From Thelocarpon superellum (Eukaryota), in NCBI GenBank assembly GCA_026025795.1, contig JAPEUG010000123.1, positions 1-40,877 of the forward strand: DNA of 40,877 nt, written 5' to 3'. Numbering within the stretch: position 1 is the first letter of the stretch; the number at the start of each line of letters is the position of its first letter. Both the position numbers and the translations under genes were made by a program. Positions 23,925-40,877 of this stretch are shown here, one piece after another. The notes beneath the pieces were generated by a model. The model was not told the DNA's origin, made no database searches, and saw only the letters and a program-made list of their open reading frames with translations.

Positions 23925-25606
23925 CTACGTCCCGCCTACTGATTTCAAGATTCCCTCGAGATTAATGCTTTTGGGTCTCTCGATGGGCAGTCCGAGAGCT
24001 CGATCCCAAATCAACTGCGCCAGGGGTCCAAGGCCACGACTGACGCCAAACGTCACCGTGTAATATAACGTCTCGGTGAAGCCGTAGTGATGGAAGAGAA
24101 CGCCCGAGCTGGAATCAACGTTGGGGTGAGGATTCTTGGTCTAGATCACGGATGCGTCAGCGTTGTGGTCATGGATTGATGGAGAGCGGAGGGAAGAATG
24201 GGATGATGCACCTTTCCATGCTCGGTCAATACTTCCGGCGCCACCTCCGAGTTCTTCTTGACGAGCTGGAAGACGGGGTCGGCAGCGATCTCGGGCCGCG
24301 ACGAGGCAAAGTCCATCAAGGCCTCGAAGCGAGGGTCGGGTTTGCGGAGGACGGCGTGGCCGTAGCCCGGCACCACCTGGCCGGACTTCAACGTGCTCCA
24401 CAGGTAGTCCTTGACGTCTTGGTCGGTGAAGGAGGTCCCGATCGCGGCTTGCATCTTGAGGATCCATCGCAGGACTTCTTGCGCGGCGAGCCTGTCGAGA
24501 CACGTCAGTCGACGAAGCGCTCAGCAGAGCTTCGCAATCAGGAGAGCTTCGCAACGCACCCGTGGAGAGGGCCGGCAAGACCGAGGAGACCAGCACTGTA
24601 GCTGAGAAACGGGTCGCTGAGGGCGCTTCCCACCAGATGAGTAGCGTGGGCGGAGACGTTGCCTCCTTCGTGGTCGCCATGGAGCGCAATGTACAGTCGG
24701 AGAAGGTCTTGGAAGTTCTCGTGCTCCTTACCGCCTTTCCCCAGCATGGCCGCGAAATTGTACGCCCAGTCCTGCTGTAGGTCCACCTTGGCTGGCAGGG
24801 CGCCTCCGCCGCGGTACGCATTCTGGTAGATTTTGGCGGCAATCGTGGGCAGCTTGCCCAAAAGTGAGATGCTGTCGTCAAACGTGGGCTCCCAGTAGTC
24901 GGCCTTGCTCAGCCCCGCTTCGTAGGCCTTGGCAAAGCTGGAGGTATGATTGAGCGCGGCGACGGCAGCGGCAAACTGCGTCATGGGATGCAGATCCGTC
25001 GGGAAGTTATCGAGCATCTCCTCGAGAAAGGGGGGAATCGTCGCTTGCTCCGCCAGCTGGCGTGACAGACCACGCACTTGTGCGGTCGACGGCACTTGGC
25101 CCGTGAGCAGCAGCCAGAACATTGACTCGGGGAGCATCTCGGTCCCCGACGTGCCCTTGGGGAGATCGCTGCGACAGTCTCTGATCGAGCGACCGTGAAA
25201 GCGAATCCCCTCGTTTGGATCCAGCACGGAACTCTCCCATACCATCGCCTTGAGGCCTCTGTTTCGCCATCGTCAGCCCTTTACCCATGCGTTGTGCCCG
25301 TCTGGCAACGGTGCACCACCAACCTCATCCCACCAATCGTGTTCTCCACCTTGACGTCACCCAACACTTTGCCGCCATGATCCGTCTTGACCTGTCTCAA
25401 CAGCTCACGCTTGGCTGGGATGACCGCTTTCAGGGCGCTCTTCAGATCGGGTTCTGGCGTGGAGGAATACGACCGAGTAACGGAGGGGGTCGCGAGTCTG
25501 GGCGAGAGTCTCTGTCGTCATCGTCAGACATTGAGCGTCATCACCCATCCACACCTACCTGAGCGGTCCGGAGCACCCCCGGGGTGATGCGGTTGCTGAA
25601 CGCCAT
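23925..25606 (-). CDS. mcsA: 2-methylcitrate synthase, mitochondrial, 5 exons
   Basis: Citrate synthase fold ([25 protein letters not shown]) with GPLHG-LAAQEVL instead of LANQEVL; presequence [16 protein letters not shown]; head-to-head with methylisocitrate lyase. Confidence 0.92.
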
Positions 25607-25859
25607 GACAGAGGGCCGCCGTGATGTTCAGTCCCTTCGTCCCAGCTTTGGGGTGGCCTCCTCTGATTGCCAGCCACAGATTCCTCCGCCGTTAGCCGAG
25701 TGGTGGGGCAACGATCGGATAAGATAAGATCCGATTCCTGCCTCGGTCCTCCGTCAGACAACTTGTCCCGTCAAGTGGCGAGGAACGATGGTTGTTTGTC
25801 AAGTGTCAATGGTCACATGGTGGAGACTACGTGTTCGCATCTTGGGTGATGTCGTGAGC
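25607..25859. promoter_or_regulatory. Bidirectional mcsA-mclA promoter (253 bp)
   Basis: Divergent ATGs at 25606 and 25860. Contains the ATCGGAT-AAGATAAG-ATCCGAT palindrome (25714..25735) and CCTCGG (25741..25746). Confidence 0.8.
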
Positions 25860-27946
25860 ATGATGCGTCGGTCACATCCCATCCTCCACGGCCTTGGCCG
25901 CATCGTCTCCCGACCCGCAACGGCGACAAGCGTCCGCAGCTTGTCCGTGTCCTCATCCACCATGACCGCGGTCCACCTCTCGCCCGTCGATCCTCTGTTG
26001 TCCTCTGCCTTGCCTTCTGACGCGTTTCAATTGCTTCCAGCGTCCGCCAAAGATGGGGCTCATGAGGATGCATTGTTCGACCAACAAGTCCACGACGTGA
26101 AGCAATGGTGGGCATCGCCGCGGTATGAGGGTATCCGACGACCATACTCGGCCCAGGATATCGTCAGCAAGCGGGGCACCTTACAACAGACGTATCCAAG
26201 CTCCCTGATGGCACGCAAGCTCTTCACTTTGCTCCGAGAAAAGGAGGCCAACGGACAGCCGCTCCACACCAGTACGCCACTTCCCCTTCTCCTTTGCCGG
26301 AGCTGACAGACCCTCGGTCCTTTCCAGTGGGGGCCATTGACCCTGTGCAGATGACTCAACAAGCCGCTGCCCAAGAGGCGCTGTACATCTCCGGCTGGGC
26401 ATGTTCGTCCACGCTGACGACGACCCACGAGGTGTCGCCCGACTTTGGCGACTATCCCTACAATACGGTGCCCAACCAGGTTCAACGGCTGTTCAAAGCG
26501 CAGCAGCTCCACGATCGGAAACAATGGGACGCCCGTCGGCGAATGAACGCCGAGGAGCGTCGGACGACACCCTACGTCGACTATCTGCGGCCGATCGTCG
26601 CGGATGGGGATACCGGGTAGGCAACATCGACCGGCGTGACGGACCTCTTACCGACCCTTGACTGATCACTCGCTCCAGACACGGTGGCTTGTCGGCGGTG
26701 ATGAAGCTCGCCAAACTCTTCGCCGAGAATGGAGCGGCGGCGGTGCACTTTGAGGACCAGATGCACGGCGGCAAGAAGTGCGGGCATCTTGCGGGCAAGG
26801 TGCTGGTGCCGATGGGGGAACACATCAAGCGCCTCATCGCGGCACGATACCAATGGGATATGATGGGGTCGGAGAACCTGCTCATCGCCCGGACTGATGC
26901 CGAGAGTGGAAAGCTCCTGAGCAGCGCCATCGACGTGTGCGATCACGAGTTCATCCTGGGCGTCAACGACGTCGTGGAGCCCTTGGCCGAGCGCCTCGCA
27001 GCGATGGAGCACGAAGGCGCGACCGCAGAGGAGATTGATGTCTACGAGGCCACGTGGGTGAAGGAGCACGAGTTGATGACGTTTGACGAAGGTAGCCCGT
27101 GCCCTCCTATCGGTGACGTCCACCGCTGACGACGTGATGGCAGCCGCATTGCGGCACTTTCACACGCACGGCGTCGCTCAGACAAAGATCGACCGATATC
27201 GGTCAGACGTAGAGGCCGATCATGATTTGTCCTTATCCGCCCGGCGACGCTTGGCCAACGCCCATGGCGGCAGTGAGGTCCCCTTTTCGTGGGATACGCC
27301 TCGAACTCGCGAAGGCTTCTATCATTATCGCGCGGGACTCCCCGCGGCAACCAAACGCGCCATCCACTATGGTCCCTACGCCGATCTCTTGTGGCTCGAG
27401 ACCGCGAGTCCCAGCGTCGCGAAAGCGGCGGCCTTTGCGGGCGAGATTCGCGACACACACCCAGGGAAGCCGCTGGTCTACAACCTGAGCCCCTCGTTCA
27501 ACTGGATGGGTCACGGTTTCACCGAGAGCACGCTGCGTTCCTTCATCTGGGATCTGGCGCAACATGGGTAGGTTGACTTCACTCCGGCGCTCTCTCCCGA
27601 GGCGTCTTTGCTGATCTTGTGCCAGGTTCGTCTTACAGCTCATCTCCCTCGCGGGCCTGCACTCGACGGCGACCATCACGTCGGAATTGTCCAAGGCGTA
27701 CCAGCACGAGGGCATGCTCGCATACGTGCGGCTCGTGCAACAGCGCGAGAAAGATCTCGGCGTCGACGTGCTCACGCATCAGAAATGGAGTGGTGCACAA
27801 TACATGGACGGCATCCTCGGCAGCATCCAGAGCGGAAGCAGTTCGAGTCGGAGCATGGGCGAGGGCAATACTGAGACAGGTGAGTGAGTTGATAACATCC
27901 TGCCCCCCGCATCCCGCTCACCCTCTTGCCCACCGTAGGGTTTTGA
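25860..27946 (+). CDS. mclA: 2-methylisocitrate lyase, mitochondrial, 6 exons
   Basis: ICL fold with [10 protein letters not shown] and [10 protein letters not shown] (ICL has KKCGHM and WQFITLAGLH); Arg/Ser-rich presequence; short final exon GG TTT TGA. Confidence 0.92.
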
Positions 27947-33879: not shown

Positions 33880-35637
33880 ATGGACAATGAGAAGGAAGTG
33901 AGCACGGCCTACGCGGCGTCGCAGGATGTGGTGGAGGATGCCAAACATATGGATGCGGATACCCTCAAGCTGGCATGTACGTCACTCGCTCTGTGCGCAT
34001 CTGGGGCGCGGCGCCGACTGACCTGGGCGCAGCGATGGGTTACACCCAAGACTTGGAGCGAAACTTCTCCGTCTGGTCTGTCCTCGGCGTCGGCTTCTCC
34101 CTGACCAACTCGTGGTTCGCCATCTCGGCGGCGTTGATCACGGGCATCAACTCGGGCGGGCCGATCCTGATCGTCTACGGCATCATCCTGATCGCCCTCA
34201 TCTCCATCTGCGTGGGCGTGTCCTTGTCCGAGCTCGCCAGCGCCTTTCCCAACGCCGGTGGGCAATACTTTTGGGCGCACGAGCTGGCGCCTAAGCGGTA
34301 CGCCAACTTTGCCTCGTATCTGACGGGATGGTTTGCCTGGGCCGGTGCCGTCTTCACCTCGGCCGCCGTGGCGCTGGCGGTGGGCAGTGCGGGCGTGGGG
34401 TGCTATCAATTGACCCATCCCGACTTGTACGTTCCGCTCCGATGGCTCCATCTCCCATCCCGCTCGCCGCCGACGCTGACGCTGACGCTGGTAGGGTGAT
34501 ACAACCATGGATGGTCGTGGTGGCGTACCAGCTGGTCAATGGGTTTTCCTACTTCTTCAATTGCTACGGCAAGGTGCTTCCGGCCATCGCCAGCACCTCA
34601 CTCTGGGTCTCGTTGATCTCCTTTGCCGTGATCCTCATCACCGTACCGGCCGCGGCGCCCACCCACCAGAGTGCGCAATACGTGTTTGCCAACTTTGTCA
34701 ACAACACGGGATGGCAACAGAATGGGATCGCCTTTATCGTGGGCCTCATCAACACCAACTGGGCCTTTGCCTGTCTCGATTGCGCCACGCACATGGCGGA
34801 AGAGGTGCCACGGCCCGAGCGGAACATTCCCATTGCCATCATGGGCACCGTGGCCATTGGGTTCGTGACGTCGTGGTTCTTCTCCATCGCCTTGTTCTTC
34901 AGCCTCGACAACCTCGACGCCATTCAGGCCTCGCTCACCGGCGTGCCGGTCCTGGAGCTGTTCCACCAAGCGCTGCGCAACACGGCCGGCGCCGTCGTGC
35001 TGGAGAGCTTGATCATGGTCACGGGCGTGGGCTGCTTGATCGCCTGTCACACGTGGCAAGCACGGTTGTGTTGGTCCTTTGCTCGCGACAAGGGTGTGCC
35101 AGGATACACGTACCTCGCCCGGGTCAACACGACCCTCGACACGCCATTGCATGCACACACCGCGAGCTCCGTCATCGTCTCCCTGCTGGGACTCCTGTAC
35201 CTGGGCTCCTCGACAGCCTTCAACAGGCAGGTTCCCCTTGGCTCTGACGTTGATCGATGGCTAACTCCTCACAGTATGGTCACGGCGTCCATCGTGCTCT
35301 TGTACATCTCCTACAGCATCCCCGTAATCTGTCTGCTGATCCGGGGACGCGACAACGTGACGCACGGGCCATTTTGGATGGGTCGATTTGGCTTCGCGTC
35401 CAACATCGTCTTGTGCCTGTGGACCCTATTCACCTTGATCATGTATTCCTTTCCCATCTACCAGCCGGTGACGGCAGCAACCAGTACGTCGTCACGATTC
35501 GCCCTTTTCCTTGACCCACCACTAACGTCTCGCGCAGTGAACTACGTCAGCGTCATCTACTTCATCGTCATCGCCATCCTTGTCGGATATTGGTTCATCC
35601 AGGCGCGACATACCTATGGCCATCGAAGTGGCAGTGA

Positions 35638-35669
<32 letters not shown>

Positions 35670-35731
35670 AGGTCGCCGACGTCGCGCAACTCGATGGTGC
35701 CTCGAAGGAATCATCATCAAACGACCTGTAA
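33880..35731 (+). CDS. HNM1: Hnm1-like choline/ethanolamine permease (APC superfamily, ACT family), 5 exons
   Basis: NFSVWSVLGVGFSLTNSW..SGGP..IVYGII..LSELASAFPNAGGQY and DCATHMAEE closely resemble yeast Hnm1. Four introns, including GC-AG 35227..35274; (GCC)10 poly-Ala at 35639..35668. Confidence 0.85.
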
Positions 35732-35900
35732 TGCGCCAGACCATCCCACGAGACTTTCACCCGTCATCCACGCGACGCTTCATCCACCGGGTTTCAACGT
35801 AGGAAGCTCCAGTCCTCGTCTCGTCCCGCCAGTCCCACGTGAAGAGGGAGGGCAGAAGCCATGCGTACGCGCGCTTGACACCGCAACTGGACGTAATCAG

Positions 35901-36011
35901 GAGAGAAGGGAAGAGAAGGGAAGAGAAGAGAAGAGAAGAGAAGGGCTGGGAAGAGAAGAGAAGAGAAGAGAAGAGAAGAGAGAAGTAAAGAAGAGGGAGA
36001 AGAGGAGAAGA
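35901..36011. repeat. Imperfect (AAGAG)n purine microsatellite
   Basis: AAGAG/AAGGG array between the convergent permease and GS-like genes. Confidence 0.9.
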
Positions 36012-36141
36012 AAACAACCAAATACCTAAAGGTATCAAATCGACACGGGGCCAGAGGGGTGGTTGGCGGGCTGATCTGATTGTATCAAGATATCAAGGGG
36101 GGGCTGGGCGGCGGAGTCAGGTGTCGCACAGAGTTGGGTAT

Positions 36142-36161
36142 GATAGGATAGGATAGGATAG
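36142..36161. repeat. (GATAG)4 microsatellite
   Basis: Four perfect copies. Confidence 0.9.
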
Positions 36162-36454
36162 GGCAGGACGGGGCGTAATGTGCGTGATTGAATGACACTC
36201 GCAAGGAGGCCTCCCCCCGATCACGGGGATGGAAGTGGTAGTCTCAAGTACGCCCTGACTATTCCAGTCATAGGTGTGTGCAGTTCATGTGGCACCCCCA
36301 AGGTACCACACAACGAGCATCTGCGATTGAATGGACGAAGAAGAGTCGGGTATGCGCAGACTGACCAGCGTCCGGCGATTGCTAGCTCGATACACGGCAG
36401 CGGCGGACGATAAACACGTGTATCTCAAATGGGACTTGGTACTCGCACAGCATG

Positions 36455-38133
36455 TCATACTGTCTCAATATATCGTTTGACTTCCCTATTCGCACCTCAC
36501 TGTCAAGATCACGCCCGTGCGTCGGGGACGGGCAGGAAACATACCAATCCGTGACGGCCACATCCCAAAGTCGAATCTCATGCTCCCTCGTACCGGCGAA
36601 GTGGTCGACAAAATCGTCACCAAAGACCTCGCGGGCTACGCTCCCCTCGGCTGCGAACCGCTCGTTGGCTTCCTTCAGGGACCGCGCTAGTCGCTGCCCA
36701 CTTGGAACCCCGCTGCCTCTCTCGCTTGTGTCCTCGCCCTTCCCCAGCGGTGGGATGGAGATTTCGAGCTTCTCTTCTATGCCACGGTATCCGAGGGCGA
36801 GAATGGCGGCGAGGGCGTAGTGTGGGTTTGCGTCTGCGCCTGGCACGCGAATCTCGAAGCGCGTGGCTTTCGCCGGAGCCGTGGGCGGGGCGATCAGGCG
36901 AATCGAGGCGCTGCGGTGCTCGAGGCCCCACGATACGGTGACCGGGGCCCAGAAGTTCTCGACCAGTCGTTTGTAGCTGTTGATCGTCGGAGCGAGGAGC
37001 GGCATGATGTCTGGGAGGCCCGCGAGGAGCCCGGCCAGGAAGTGTCGGCCCAGATCCGAGAGGTGGACCAGGTCGGGGTATGGGGCGTCTGGATCTGGCG
37101 TGGAGCGGTGCAACAGATTCTTGCCCGTGTCCTGGTCGACGAGTGAGACGTGCATGTGTCCGGAACATCCTGGTAGCCCTTCTCGTGGCTTGGCCATGAA
37201 GCATGGCGTGATGCCATGTTTGCTACCGAGCGATTTGACCACGTATCTGGAGAGGCGCGGGCAGGTTAGATGGGGGGCGTGCTTGTCACCACGCAGACGA
37301 ACTCACTTGAAGAGACTAGCTTTGTCGGCCATGGGCCCGATCTCTCCGTATTCCAATGCCTGTCCACGTCGTGTCAGAACCATCCCTTTCTTCGCACATC
37401 CTTACGTACTGCCTCGAACACGCCCGGTCCGGTCTCGGTATGCCATCCTTCGATCTTACAATCAAAGGAGACACACGCGTCGTATACGCCGTAGTAGTAG
37501 TCTTGATTCAAGACTGGACGTGTGACGCTATACCCAAACATACCCTCGGTGAGTGAGGGCAGCGTGTTGACTGAGTTCTCTTGTAGGAATTTCGCGATCG
37601 ATTGAGGCTGGCTGCCCGTCGTACCGTCCGTCGACGGAACACGGAACTGAAAGAATTCGTACTCCGCTATCGAGTGGTCAACAGGGGAGGATTCAAGGCT
37701 GGATTCGGGAAATGATACCCCCCGCCAACGCTCGCATGCCGTCCTTCCCAAGCTTCGTGACAAGGGTCTCCAAAAGACCTCGCGGACAGGCACTGACCGG
37801 CTTCTTGCTGTCGGGATCGTGAAAGGTAACGAGGAAGAAGGGCACGTCATTCTCCCATGGTATCCGTCGAAAGGAGTTGAGGTCCGGAACCGCAATCAGA
37901 TCTCGGTAGCCCGTCTCCGCTGTGCTTATCTTCAACTCCTTGAAATACGTCTGATCGTGCATGTCCCAGCCAAAGAGGACCGAGCAAAAGCCGAATCCCT
38001 CCTTCGCCACGGACAGGAACTTGTCCTTGGCCATGACCTTGCCGCGGAGGACGCCATCGACGTCGATTCCGGCCACCTTGACCTTGGTGTCATCTTGCAG
38101 AAGCTGGGGAAGCTTGGCAGCGGTGATGGACAT
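36455..38133 (-). CDS. Type I glutamine-synthetase-like gamma-glutamyl ligase (GlnA4/PuuA-like), 5 exons
   Basis: DGVLRGK, AEYEFF, HTETGPGVFE, FMAKP..GCSGHMHVS, NSYKRL..FWAP, RFEIRVPGAD, C-terminal VTDW-EVKRY. Not the eukaryotic GSII Gln1 type. Confidence 0.88.
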
Positions 38134-38972
38134 CTCGGGCGATACTCCGCCACATATACTCCCTACGGCGCGTTGATTGCGTGATCGGATGACGAAGAAG
38201 GCTAAGATCGATCAGGCCTCACTCGTCTCCTCGCCCAATATGACGAGTTTGTGCTGGTAATGGGTCTGGACTTGAAGGCGCTGGGGCATGCTCCTTCGTG
38301 GGGCATGGATGCCGGCTGGTGCGGCCGTGCCGTCATTCTCACTCACTCGCTTAAGGGCGGTATCCTGGCCGATCAGTGCAGCGCGGACATCCCAACCACT
38401 CGGACGTCGCGTGTAGAGACCCATTCTGTGCAAGTGCTGACCGTCTGAGGATGCACATCTGACTTGCGTCAAGCACTACCAGACGACGCGCTTACTTGTA
38501 CGGGAGAGGGTTTGCAAAATGACCGGACGCCTTCATAATTGACTGCGAATCTCTACACTGACGTCTGGCTTGGACTGATGGGCGCGCTCCACGATTGCAT
38601 ATCTAGCATAGTACCAAATCAGTGGTCGCGTTCCGTGGTAGACCATGTTGCAATATGGGAATAGAAGGGGGTGCTCCGTACTCGCTCTCTAAGAGGGGTT
38701 ACCCTTTATTTGCCAGTGGGGAACTTGAACCCTGCACACTCCCTCCCGTACGTGGTCCCGACACCGATTGTACGTATGACGGCCCAGGCCGCCACGTGCA
38801 TTCCTTGTGGCTAACCAGCTCGCGTGCCCCACCAAGGCATCTAGTCTTCTTTCCAGTGGGCCATTGGGCCATATCCGCATTCAAAGGGCTCTGTGGCCTG
38901 TGTCGAGCTTGTCTAGATACCAAACATACCTTTCATCCCTGTCAAGCTCATCCGCGATTCCTACGAGCTACC
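38134..38972. promoter_or_regulatory. Divergent promoter shared by the GS-like ligase and SDR genes
   Basis: Head-to-head ATGs at 38133 and 38973 with no credible CDS between them. Confidence 0.6.
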
Positions 38973-40073
38973 ATGACGTCCAGCGTTCCGAAAGGACGGC
39001 TGGACGGGAAGAATGCCATCATCACCGGCGCAGCTGGGTGAGTCATGGTCATGGGATGCCCATCCACCGAGACCGCCCATTCTGTACTCCGACTGATCTG
39101 GTTGCAGTGGTATTGGTCTCGAGACGACCATTCTCATGGCTCGAGAGGGGGCTTCGGTCCTTATGGCCGACATTAACGCTGCGGCGTTAAATAGCGCCCT
39201 CGAAAAGGTGCACGAGCTTGTCCCTTCCGCCCCGCGACTCGAGACCATCATCTGCGATGTATCCTCGGAAGGATCCGTCACGGCCATGGTCGAGCACGTC
39301 GACGCCTGGGGAGGCGTTGACGTCATGTTTAACAACGCCGGCATCATGCACGGCAAGGACGACGACGCTATCAACACTCCCGAAGCCATCTGGGATCTCA
39401 CGCAAAACATCAACGTCAAGGGCGTCTGGTTCGGGAGTAAACATGCCGTCCTGAGCATGCGTCGACACCAGAAACACCGAGGGAGCATCATCAACACTGC
39501 CAGCGTCGTGGCTTTGATCGGCAGCGCCACTCCGCAGCTGGCATACACGGCCAGTAAAGGGGCCGTGTTGGCCATGACCCGAGAACTGGCCATGGTACAC
39601 GCCAAGGAGGGTGTGCCGTCCCTTCCTCCTCCCTTCAACCCGCTACTCACACAACTCTTCCTCACCTAGGCATCCGTTTTAACGCGCTTTGTCCCGCGCC
39701 TCTCAAGTTCGTCCACGGCTCCTCTCCCTACCTCCACGTACGCCGTACTGACCAGCACCAGCACCCCCCTGCTACAAGACTGGCTAGGTGACGACGCAGC
39801 GAAGCGGCACAGGCGGGAGATTCACTTTCCCACGGGACGATTCGGCGAGGCCATTGAACAGGCACACGCCGTGGTCTTTCTCGCCAGCGACGAGAGTAGC
39901 TTCGTCAACGGGGCCGATTTCGTCGTGGACGGCGGGCTTACGAAGGTATGTTATCTTTCTGTTTGATCCCATTTGATTCAGGATGATGCAGGAAAGGGGC
40001 TGAGTGGATGATGAAGGCGTATACCACTGCCGAAGGACCCGCTACAGATCCCCCGCCCAACAATGCGCGTTAG
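38973..40073 (+). CDS. Classical short-chain dehydrogenase/reductase, Rv2857c/SCO1611-like, 5 exons
   Basis: TGAAGGIG, Asp after beta2 (MADIN, suggesting NAD), NNAG, catalytic S and YTASK, CPAPLNTPLL..HFPTGRF, DGGLTKAYTT; includes a micro-exon of about 37 nt near 39670..39706. Confidence 0.9.
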
Positions 40074-40877
40074 CAAGGGGGGGTCTGTACAGGGTGCGAG
40101 CCAGGGTGGGCTTGATGAACCGAAACGAGCAACGATGGATCAGTGACGATGATTAGACAGACGGTACACCGTAGACGAATAGAGCGAGGTCATGTTTGGT
40201 GAATCCACGTGTTGTCTGCAACCGTGGACATCATGTAGTCTGCCTTCGGACCTGTACTCTGCGCACGATCCGGACCCCAAGACTGAACAACATTAGCACC
40301 GGCGCACGCGAGCGCAGGAGATTGAAAGGCTCCACGTTTATTGGGTTCTTACCAGGAGCCTTCCCCCTTTTCGTGGACATGCTTTCAATAGCAGGGAGCA
40401 ACGCTCAAGTGCAAAAAGCGTCTTCACTTGACGGAAGAATTGGGGACGTGCAGAACAGTTTCCTCCGGCCGCTGGTACGGACCACTGGTGCTCGTGCTCG
40501 TAGTACGGGTAGTCCACAGTAGTACAGAGTGCGCGTACGAGCACAAGTACCAAGCTACGCTGTTGAACGGTCACGTGGATGGGTCGCTTATGTTACGACG
40601 GCTGTTTAGCTGGGGACGAGCGACATATCGTTCCGGCCCTAGCCCGGCTAGCTAGAGACTTACATGCATTCCCGACCGATGAGTCCGGCTTGCAGCTGGG
40701 TAAGTCAACCAGAGCCATCCGGCCAGAGGCGATATCGCCCCAGCTGGGGCCTCTCCAGTCCCTCGAGCCCCCACCGAACGTATCCGACCGCACGACCCAT
40801 GTCCGTACCTCGCCCCCCAACTCCATTCTAGCCCTGACTCCTTCGCAATGCGTCCCATGCCACAGAGGCGTGTCTCC

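Follow-up and report, generated by a model that had tools for sequence, protein, structure and literature searches.

The window analysed here, i.e., the whole 40,877-nucleotide contig JAPEUG010000123.1 of Thelocarpon superellum (assembly GCA_026025795.1), contains a gene for a ligase resembling glutamine synthetase (GS) and, divergently transcribed from it, a gene for a short-chain dehydrogenase/reductase (SDR). With moderate confidence, the two proteins are regarded as catalysing the first and second steps of a gamma-glutamylation route in fungi, which would degrade a small amino alcohol (ethanolamine being the most likely) as nitrogen source. Since the pair is kept in most fungi sampled and has bacterial relatives in ethanolamine-breakdown operons, fungi probably hold an undescribed version of this pathway. 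The fungal pair is probably a eukaryotic, mosaic and divergently transcribed form of a known bacterial pathway, widespread in ascomycetes. The features concerned are the following:

33880-33976, 34033-34426, 34495-35226, 35275-35483, 35538-35731, forward strand: permease of the APC/ACT family, 541 aa, 5 exons (Pfam AA_permease_2)
38133-37719, 37666-37410, 37359-37307, 37246-36545, 36485-36455, reverse strand: GS-like ligase, 485 aa, 5 exons, C-terminal end TDWEVKRYIETV (Pfam Gln-synt_C)
38973-39037, 39108-39610, 39670-39706, 39762-39945, 40017-40073, forward strand: classical NAD-type SDR, 281 aa, 5 exons (Pfam adh_short and adh_short_C2)
38134-38972, no strand: divergent intergenic region between the start codons of ligase and SDR, 839 bp, read from the sequence

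The exon models of all three genes were assembled by hand from the sequence and then translated. A preliminary description of this DNA had placed a permease, a GS-like gene and an SDR side by side, the last two around a divergent promoter. The models and the Pfam matches bear this out: three intron-containing genes occupy the positions listed, and the start codons of ligase and SDR face away from each other across the 839 bp. The permease and the ligase are convergent.

Both members of the pair are highly conserved. Exon 4 of the ligase is 73-79% identical to its orthologues across Pezizomycotina, and exon 2 of the SDR is 75-84% identical among fungal relatives. Fungal metagenome contigs were scanned with the deposited ligase protein (P0001), which gave 80 loci (56-79% identity). 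A locus was considered as informative for the SDR if its flank on the upstream side of the ligase measured 2.5 kb or more (n = 35), and for the permease if the downstream flank did (n = 39). In 28 of the 35 informative loci the ligase is preceded by an SDR orthologue, 27 times in divergent and once in tandem orientation (L126); when loci whose ligase genes are 95% or more identical are merged, the ratio is 25/31. Locus tags of both genes were also compared by eye among the best 120 matches for each gene. The ligase and SDR tags are consecutive in four of the five species with sequential tags, i.e., Thelocarpon impressellum, Madurella fahalii, Sarea resinae and Sarcosagium campestre. In four more species the two genes are on equally long contigs, one of which is only 20 kb. 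The presence of the SDR beside the ligase in 28/35 loci supports a functional link between the two. This adjacency, found across fungal classes and mirrored in all seven of the bacterial clusters that hold the closest plasmid-borne SDR relatives (see below), argues against the genes being neighbours without common function. Such a fortuitous arrangement, or the alternative that the ligase is an ordinary GS isoform, is considered very improbable.

The ordinary-isoform alternative has on its side that source records call the ligase «glutamine synthetase» and that its best NCBIfam model is TIGR00653, i.e., type I GlnA. However, the score (208 bits) is far under the cut-off of 429, and no equivalog cut-off was approached in the NCBIfam scan of the ligase. 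The residues themselves, numbered after E. coli GlnA, are more informative. Exon 4 matches Pfam Gln-synt_C with 195 bits, and the metal, ATP and glutamate residues E129, E131, E212, E220, H269, H271, R321, R339, R344, E357 and R359 are kept in 11/11 fungal ligases. On the contrary, the ammonium site is lost: the flap residue E327 is replaced by Trp in 10/11, Y179 by Phe in 8/11, and D50 is not kept. In the nearest bacterial clade, W327 and F179 are present in 40/40 sequences. Since the catalytic residues are intact and those of the ammonium site are lost, the ligase is predicted to be a gamma-glutamyl-amine ligase and not a true GS.

The ligase family is pan-fungal, with named representatives at 43-52% identity in chytrids, Kickxellomycotina, Basidiobolus, Glomeromycota and some Saccharomycotina. 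A recent bacterial transfer, or contamination, was considered as source of the ligase and was rejected, because the introns of the gene are fungal, EF3 and further fungal genes lie on the same contig, and the ligase spans chytrids to ascomycetes. It should also be noted that three giant proteins, P0361 (4424 aa), P0389 (2757 aa) and P0449 (1356 aa), contain 7, 3 and 3 separate stretches, respectively, that match the ligase. P0361 is the top-scoring ligase match of the representative library (544 bits, 31% identity), with several GS-like domains per chain.

The fungal ligases form a clade (SH-aLRT 100) which nests in a bacterial clade, with a support of 99 in FastTree (103 rows) and of 98 (SH-aLRT) in IQ-TREE under LG+G4 (56 rows). 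GlnA4-type ligases, IpuC and PuuA fall outside the clade holding the fungal ligases. The fungal ligase is 39-46% identical to those of the 80 closest bacterial loci (L001-L080; Bacteroidota, Burkholderiales, Bdellovibrionota, Poribacteria and others) and only 30-32% to GlnA4-type ligases. A clade joining fungi and GlnA4-type ligases is rejected by the approximately unbiased (AU) test (p = 4e-9), this grouping having been named after the first tree was seen. The kinship to GlnA4 put forward in the preliminary description, which had called for such a phylogeny, thus does not hold: identity is low, the clades are separate and their union is rejected.

This distance from the GlnA4-type ligases is in favour of a first alternative, i.e., that the pair performs the same chemistry on another amine (1-amino-2-propanol, 3-aminopropanol or alaninol) or serves a broader amine detoxification. 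Related GS-like ligases in similar clusters do take other amines, e.g., PuuA, or IpuC, which takes isopropylamine in Paenarthrobacter and has an SDR adjacent. SDRs commonly oxidise secondary alcohols, which also suits this alternative, as does one Bacteroidota subclade of the nearest ligase kin that lacks eat (the ethanolamine permease gene) and the iron-type alcohol dehydrogenase (Fe-ADH). It is nevertheless rather unlikely in our opinion, given the gene contexts described below.

Neighbours within 7 kb of the ligase were identified in the 80 bacterial loci by clustering of open reading frames and Pfam. An Fe-ADH is found in 45/80 loci at a median distance of 54 bp, an aldehyde dehydrogenase (ALDH) in 37/80 at 1.9 kb, and an APC permease in 27/80 at 57 bp; a BLAST-based recount gives 45, 36 and 24 of 80, respectively. 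The permease of L049, the one such permease scanned, matches TIGR00908, «ethanolamine permease», with 430 bits for a cut-off of 382. The presence of TIGR00908-type permeases beside the ligase kin (24-27 of 80 loci, L049 being the one scored) is a first point against another amine as substrate. The fungal ligase loci do not share this neighbourhood of eat, Fe-ADH and ALDH: their partner gene encodes an SDR, 4/80 have an ALDH and no Fe-ADH match was found. Conversely, an SDR of fungal type is present in just 3/80 bacterial ligase loci, and it is distant (31-34% identity). As a separate observation, a 346-aa protein that matches nothing in Pfam or NCBIfam neighbours the ligase in 20/80 bacterial loci (e.g., L021:11326-12366), and a HAD hydrolase in 17/80.

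The relatives of the SDR are found elsewhere. The model contains the motifs TGAAGGIG, NNAG and S...YTASK, and the three SDR peptides quoted in the preliminary description are all recovered in it, two of them across introns. The best NCBIfam family on the SDR exons of the window is NF004713 (PRK06057), with 135 and 68 bits. Two full-length fungal orthologues likewise match it best, with 277 and 294 bits against 207-211 for the next family, yet stay below its cut-off of 404. Among bacterial SDRs, those of Streptomyces (507) and Arthrobacter (496) pass this value; those of Thermomicrobium and Allomeiothermus score 356 and 320. A scan of 14 control genomes and one Piscinibacter genome with NF004713 gave no match above the cut-off.

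The fungal SDR orthologue P0124 was used as query against the plasmids of PLSDB. The seven best matches (46-57% identity) are all in clusters with a GS-like gene, and six of the seven also have an ALDH. The next two matches (42-43%) have no linked GS-like gene. The clusters are composed as follows:

Allomeiothermus silvanus pMESIL01 (L089): permease, aminotransferase, ligase, SDR and ALDH
Thermomicrobium: ligase, SDR and eat ethanolamine permease
Streptomyces viridifaciens (pKVP1) and Arthrobacter U41: ligase, PuuD-like hydrolase, ALDH and SDR
Embleya, Arthrobacter StoSoilB13 and Nonomuraea: the same genes, found by tblastn in unannotated stretches

In the Allomeiothermus cluster, whose SDR is the closest to the fungal one, the gene between permease and ligase belongs to the aminotransferase family dependent on pyridoxal phosphate (PLP).

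In a tree of 32 rows, with a thin bacterial sampling, the 11 fungal SDRs (support 100) are included in the GS-linked bacterial clade (97), as sister to Allomeiothermus (96). The SDR of the Ipu cluster is 36% identical to the fungal SDR and lies outside its clade, which also speaks against another amine, as do the occurrence of SDR kin in GlnA4-type clusters and, in Thermomicrobium, beside eat. The preliminary description had considered that this SDR resembles Rv2857c closely. The part that stands is the placement in the SDR clade of GlnA4-type clusters; the closeness does not, the actinobacterial members being 46-50% identical and the NF004713 scores 277-294 for a cut-off of 404. By analogy of cluster architecture, Rv2857c and SCO1611 may themselves be members of NF004713. 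Since the ligases of the clusters holding the SDR kin are just 30-32% identical to the fungal ligase, the fungal pair appears as a mosaic, with a ligase from an Fe-ADH-using lineage and a dehydrogenase from the lineage of GlnA4-type clusters. Taken together, the ligase kin beside ethanolamine permease, Fe-ADH and ALDH, and the SDR kin in GlnA4-type clusters and beside eat, point to an amino-alcohol route, most plausibly for ethanolamine.

Some fungal loci contain additional genes of interest. An orthologous ALDH adjoins the pair in 4/80 loci (L115, L137, L156 and L163), these ALDHs being 65-75% identical to one another. In L115, L156 and L163 it adjoins the ligase on the downstream side, in convergent orientation, i.e., at the position of the permease in the window; the order in L137 is ALDH, SDR, ligase and a gene of the dienelactone-hydrolase family. 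An ALDH beside the pair implies a primary alcohol and is thus a further point against the other-amine alternative. The dienelactone-hydrolase-family gene (PF01738) follows the ligase at 0.7-1 kb on the same strand in nine loci, some of which are near-duplicates (L106, L108, L137, L140, L150/L152 and L168/L170/L171); they include loci with no SDR. One may speculate that this gene supplies the missing amide hydrolase, or that the arrangement is plain synteny. For a PuuD-like hydrolase, a PLP-dependent aminotransferase, an Fe-ADH and the 346-aa bacterial neighbour, no match was obtained in the fungal loci or in the window.

The promoter shared by ligase and SDR was compared among fungal loci. In an unbiased k-mer count, GATA motifs come first: GATAAGA is present in 22/35 regions, for a maximum of 15 in shuffled sequences. 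GATAAG is present in 32/34 distinct shared promoters, with 74 sites vs. 17.4 +/- 4.2 in 300 shuffles (maximum 34). Its density per kb is 2.02 in the shared promoters and 0.39 in the remainder of these loci; for the two gene bodies it is 0.29. AreA and NIT2, nitrogen regulators of fungi, have GATAAG as their core site. The enrichment, about fourfold, fits a nitrogen-catabolic role of the pair, which may be under nitrogen regulation.

This result bears on a second alternative, i.e., that the two enzymes serve to make or modify a gamma-glutamylated compound used in signalling or storage, in the manner of FluG, instead of degrading a nutrient. According to the available part of PMC6478659, the C-terminal GS-like domain of FluG is thought to act on a gamma-glutamylated intermediate that affects development; moreover, the very high conservation of ligase and SDR, at 73-81% identity across classes, would also fit a housekeeping or signalling function. 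However, the GATAAG enrichment points to nitrogen-catabolic regulators, the closest bacterial contexts are catabolic (permease, alcohol dehydrogenase, ALDH) and an ALDH is clustered with the pair in some fungi. In addition, no FluG-type N-terminal amidohydrolase domain was found in the ligase with Pfam. A signalling or storage role is thus unlikely.

The preferred reading remains the breakdown of an amino alcohol, for which four steps can be proposed from these sequence comparisons: (i) the ligase, with ATP, would form gamma-glutamyl-ethanolamide by coupling the gamma-carboxyl of glutamate with the amine; (ii) the NAD-type SDR would turn the free hydroxyl into an aldehyde; (iii) an ALDH, whose gene is clustered in some fungi and lies outside this window, would produce gamma-glutamyl-glycine; (iv) a hydrolase would free glycine and glutamate. 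In Thelocarpon, the neighbouring ACT-family permease plausibly takes up the amine. The substrate, the order of the steps and the role of the permease should be taken as putative. In the preliminary description, glutamylation of ethanolamine followed by oxidation had been suggested for permease, ligase and SDR together. The linked pair, both members of which have bacterial kin in gamma-glutamylation clusters tied to ethanolamine, agrees with this suggestion; the triad and the GlnA4 kinship on which it was built do not survive. In its most extended form the proposal is tentative: filamentous ascomycetes would possess an unrecognised, nitrogen-regulated mosaic gamma-glutamylation pathway for ethanolamine, in which an ancient pan-fungal ligase is joined, at a shared promoter, to an SDR probably acquired horizontally.

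Several observations weigh against the ethanolamine route. (i) The SDR is absent upstream of the ligase in 7/35 informative loci (L101, L106, L111, L112, L113, L122 and L167), and the ligase and SDR tags are far apart in Elasticomyces elasticus. (ii) Neither an ALDH nor an amidohydrolase was found in the window, searched to position 40877; the preliminary description had likewise noted their absence from it. (iii) Among the 80 bacterial loci, 34 are devoid of Fe-ADH, ALDH and eat, several of them being short contigs, and the three genes are lacking throughout the Bacteroidota subclade mentioned above (L009, L011, L021, L033, L039, L047, L061 and L069). (iv) The 839-bp promoter of the window itself (38134-38972) contains 0 HGATAR sites; in addition, other GATA factors exist, and regulators with no relation to nitrogen bind GATA sites as well. 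(v) A permease match is present near the ligase in 1/39 informative loci, and that match is weak. (vi) The characterised ethanolamine ligases appear to sit in the GlnA4-type clade, i.e., not in that of the fungal ligase. The best matches of the latter in the PDB are 5dm3 (157 bits), which we take to be the Chromohalobacter ethanolamine enzyme, and 11zs (152 bits). These score far higher with a Streptomyces GlnA4-type ligase (394 and 426 bits, respectively), and 271 and 257 bits with a Bacteroidota ligase, thus the assayed enzymes would belong to the other clade. The fungal ligase and its nearest bacterial clade are to be considered as putative ethanolamine enzymes. According to the available part of a 2026 study (PMC13740247), several M. 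tuberculosis GS isoforms accept ethanolamine, which calls for caution in reading a substrate from the clade alone.

The permease deserves a separate comment. Since the SDR is kept and the permease is rarely adjacent, the conserved unit is the ligase-SDR pair and not the triad. By locus tags, the best permease match adjoins the ligase in two of eight other species, T. impressellum and Caeruleum heppii. It is not beside the ligase in Sarea, Agyrium, Emmonsiellopsis, Peltula, Sarcosagium and Sclerophora, where the best match may be a paralogue in some cases. The triad is thus restricted to few lineages, by tags to two Thelocarpon genomes and C. heppii, and the conserved fungal cluster of three genes announced earlier has to be abandoned. 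The synteny search across fungi proposed at the same time is in favour of ligase-SDR adjacency and against permease linkage. The deposited permease protein (P0241) matches a single family, TIGR00907 (2A0304, amino acid/choline), with 485 bits, under the cut-off of 598. The same family is matched by the permeases of the Allomeiothermus (470 bits) and Streptomyces (466 bits) clusters, which share 27-28% identity with the fungal one along about 530 aa. Where its relatives bear a name like «choline transport protein», this is an automatic annotation of the source records. In the part of Krysenko et al. available (PMC6529630), a permease gene from a Streptomyces cluster of this kind is reported to have improved growth on ethanolamine; by its gene position, this permease may be of the same type as the fungal one.

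Ethanolamine is an abundant product of phospholipid turnover. Its breakdown in fungi is poorly defined, and the gamma-glutamylation route is documented in bacteria only. The preliminary description knew of no account of this route as a fungal gene cluster, and no fungal description was found in the literature searched, most subscription journals being outside it; «glutamylethanolamide» occurs there in bacterial papers only. An Ophiostoma «ethanolamine utilization protein» and a Neurospora metabolic model were discarded as irrelevant to the pathway. If the proposal is true, a Puu-like breakdown of amines via gamma-glutamylation would thereby be defined for the first time in a eukaryote, as far as the literature searched is concerned. 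It would also give a function to two highly conserved genes of Neurospora, Aspergillus, Trichoderma and many pathogens. This function is testable, since the ligase-SDR pair is present in model fungi with knockout collections. More generally, GS-like ligases occur with two unrelated types of alcohol dehydrogenase as partners, Fe-ADH and SDR.

Some properties of the gene models must be specified. The 12 introns of the three genes are 48-71 nt long; 11 start with GT and one with GC. The latter is a GC-AG intron, i.e., permease intron 3 (35227-35274). The deposited proteins P0001 (ligase) and P0241 (permease) each lack one 10-aa block found in the hand-built models. For the ligase and for the permease alike, this block is kept in 7/7 orthologues examined, thus the hand-built models were preferred. 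The permease block is retained only if the GC-AG intron is accepted. When the SDR model is aligned with a 278-aa orthologue from Schizothecium, 226 residues are identical. In public records the ligase product is the hypothetical protein M1838_000490 of a Thelocarpon superellum metagenome-assembled genome.

The other genes of the window encode an MFS transporter, an F-box protein, a receptor of the signal recognition particle (SRP), a citrate-synthase-like protein, a protein of the isocitrate-lyase family and EF3. The citrate-synthase-like gene (reverse strand) and the isocitrate-lyase-family gene (forward strand) are head to head at 24141-27159 and are possibly a methylcitrate-cycle pair. A citrate synthase is found less than 10 kb from the ligase in seven fungal metagenome loci. 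Its presence near the ligase both in the window and in these loci suggests an old synteny.

The fungal pair can finally be compared with known systems. FluG of Aspergillus nidulans is alike in that it has a fungal GS-like gamma-glutamyl ligase domain with no GS activity (PMC6478659, available part). It differs by its N-terminal amidohydrolase fusion and its developmental role, this comparison being by description and not by sequence. The Puu pathway of E. coli (PuuA, PuuB, PuuC, PuuD and PuuP) has in common the gamma-glutamylation of an amine, an oxidation, the release of glutamate by a hydrolase and a dedicated permease. On the contrary, its substrate is putrescine, an oxidase takes the place of the alcohol dehydrogenase, and PuuA is distant and long-branched in the trees.

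Among ethanolamine systems, the bacterial gamma-glutamylation pathway is documented in the accessible parts of PMC6529630 and PMC10132767. The operons of Chromohalobacter salexigens, Agrobacterium tumefaciens and Phaeobacter MED193 encode an ethanolamine gamma-glutamylase, a gamma-glutamylethanolamide dehydrogenase, an aldehyde dehydrogenase and a gamma-glutamylglycine amidohydrolase (PMC10132767, accessible part). Unlike the fungal loci, this proteobacterial operon has a TRAP transporter according to the same text. As for structures, 5dm3 reaches just 157 bits with the fungal ligase and groups, by score, with GlnA4-type ligases.

The cluster of S. coelicolor GlnA4 (SCO1610-SCO1615; Krysenko et al. 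2019, PMC6529630, accessible part) and its actinobacterial look-alikes follow the same logic, i.e., a GS-like ligase and an SDR, with ALDH, hydrolase and amino-acid permease in addition. The fungal SDR is in the same clade (46-50% identity), and the permease is probably of TIGR00907 type in both cases. However, the fungal ligase is in another clade, the fungal SDR does not reach the cut-off of NF004713, the window has neither a PuuD-like hydrolase nor an ALDH, and the fungal genes have introns and a divergent promoter in place of an operon. Lastly, the bacterial operons with eat, GS-like ligase, Fe-ADH and ALDH (Bacteroidota, Burkholderiales, Bdellovibrionota) differ by their iron-type alcohol dehydrogenase, where fungi have an SDR, and by a permease of TIGR00908 type, where that of Thelocarpon is probably of TIGR00907 type. 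Nevertheless, they contain the ligases closest to the fungal one, and the active-site signature P264, W327 and F179 is common to both.

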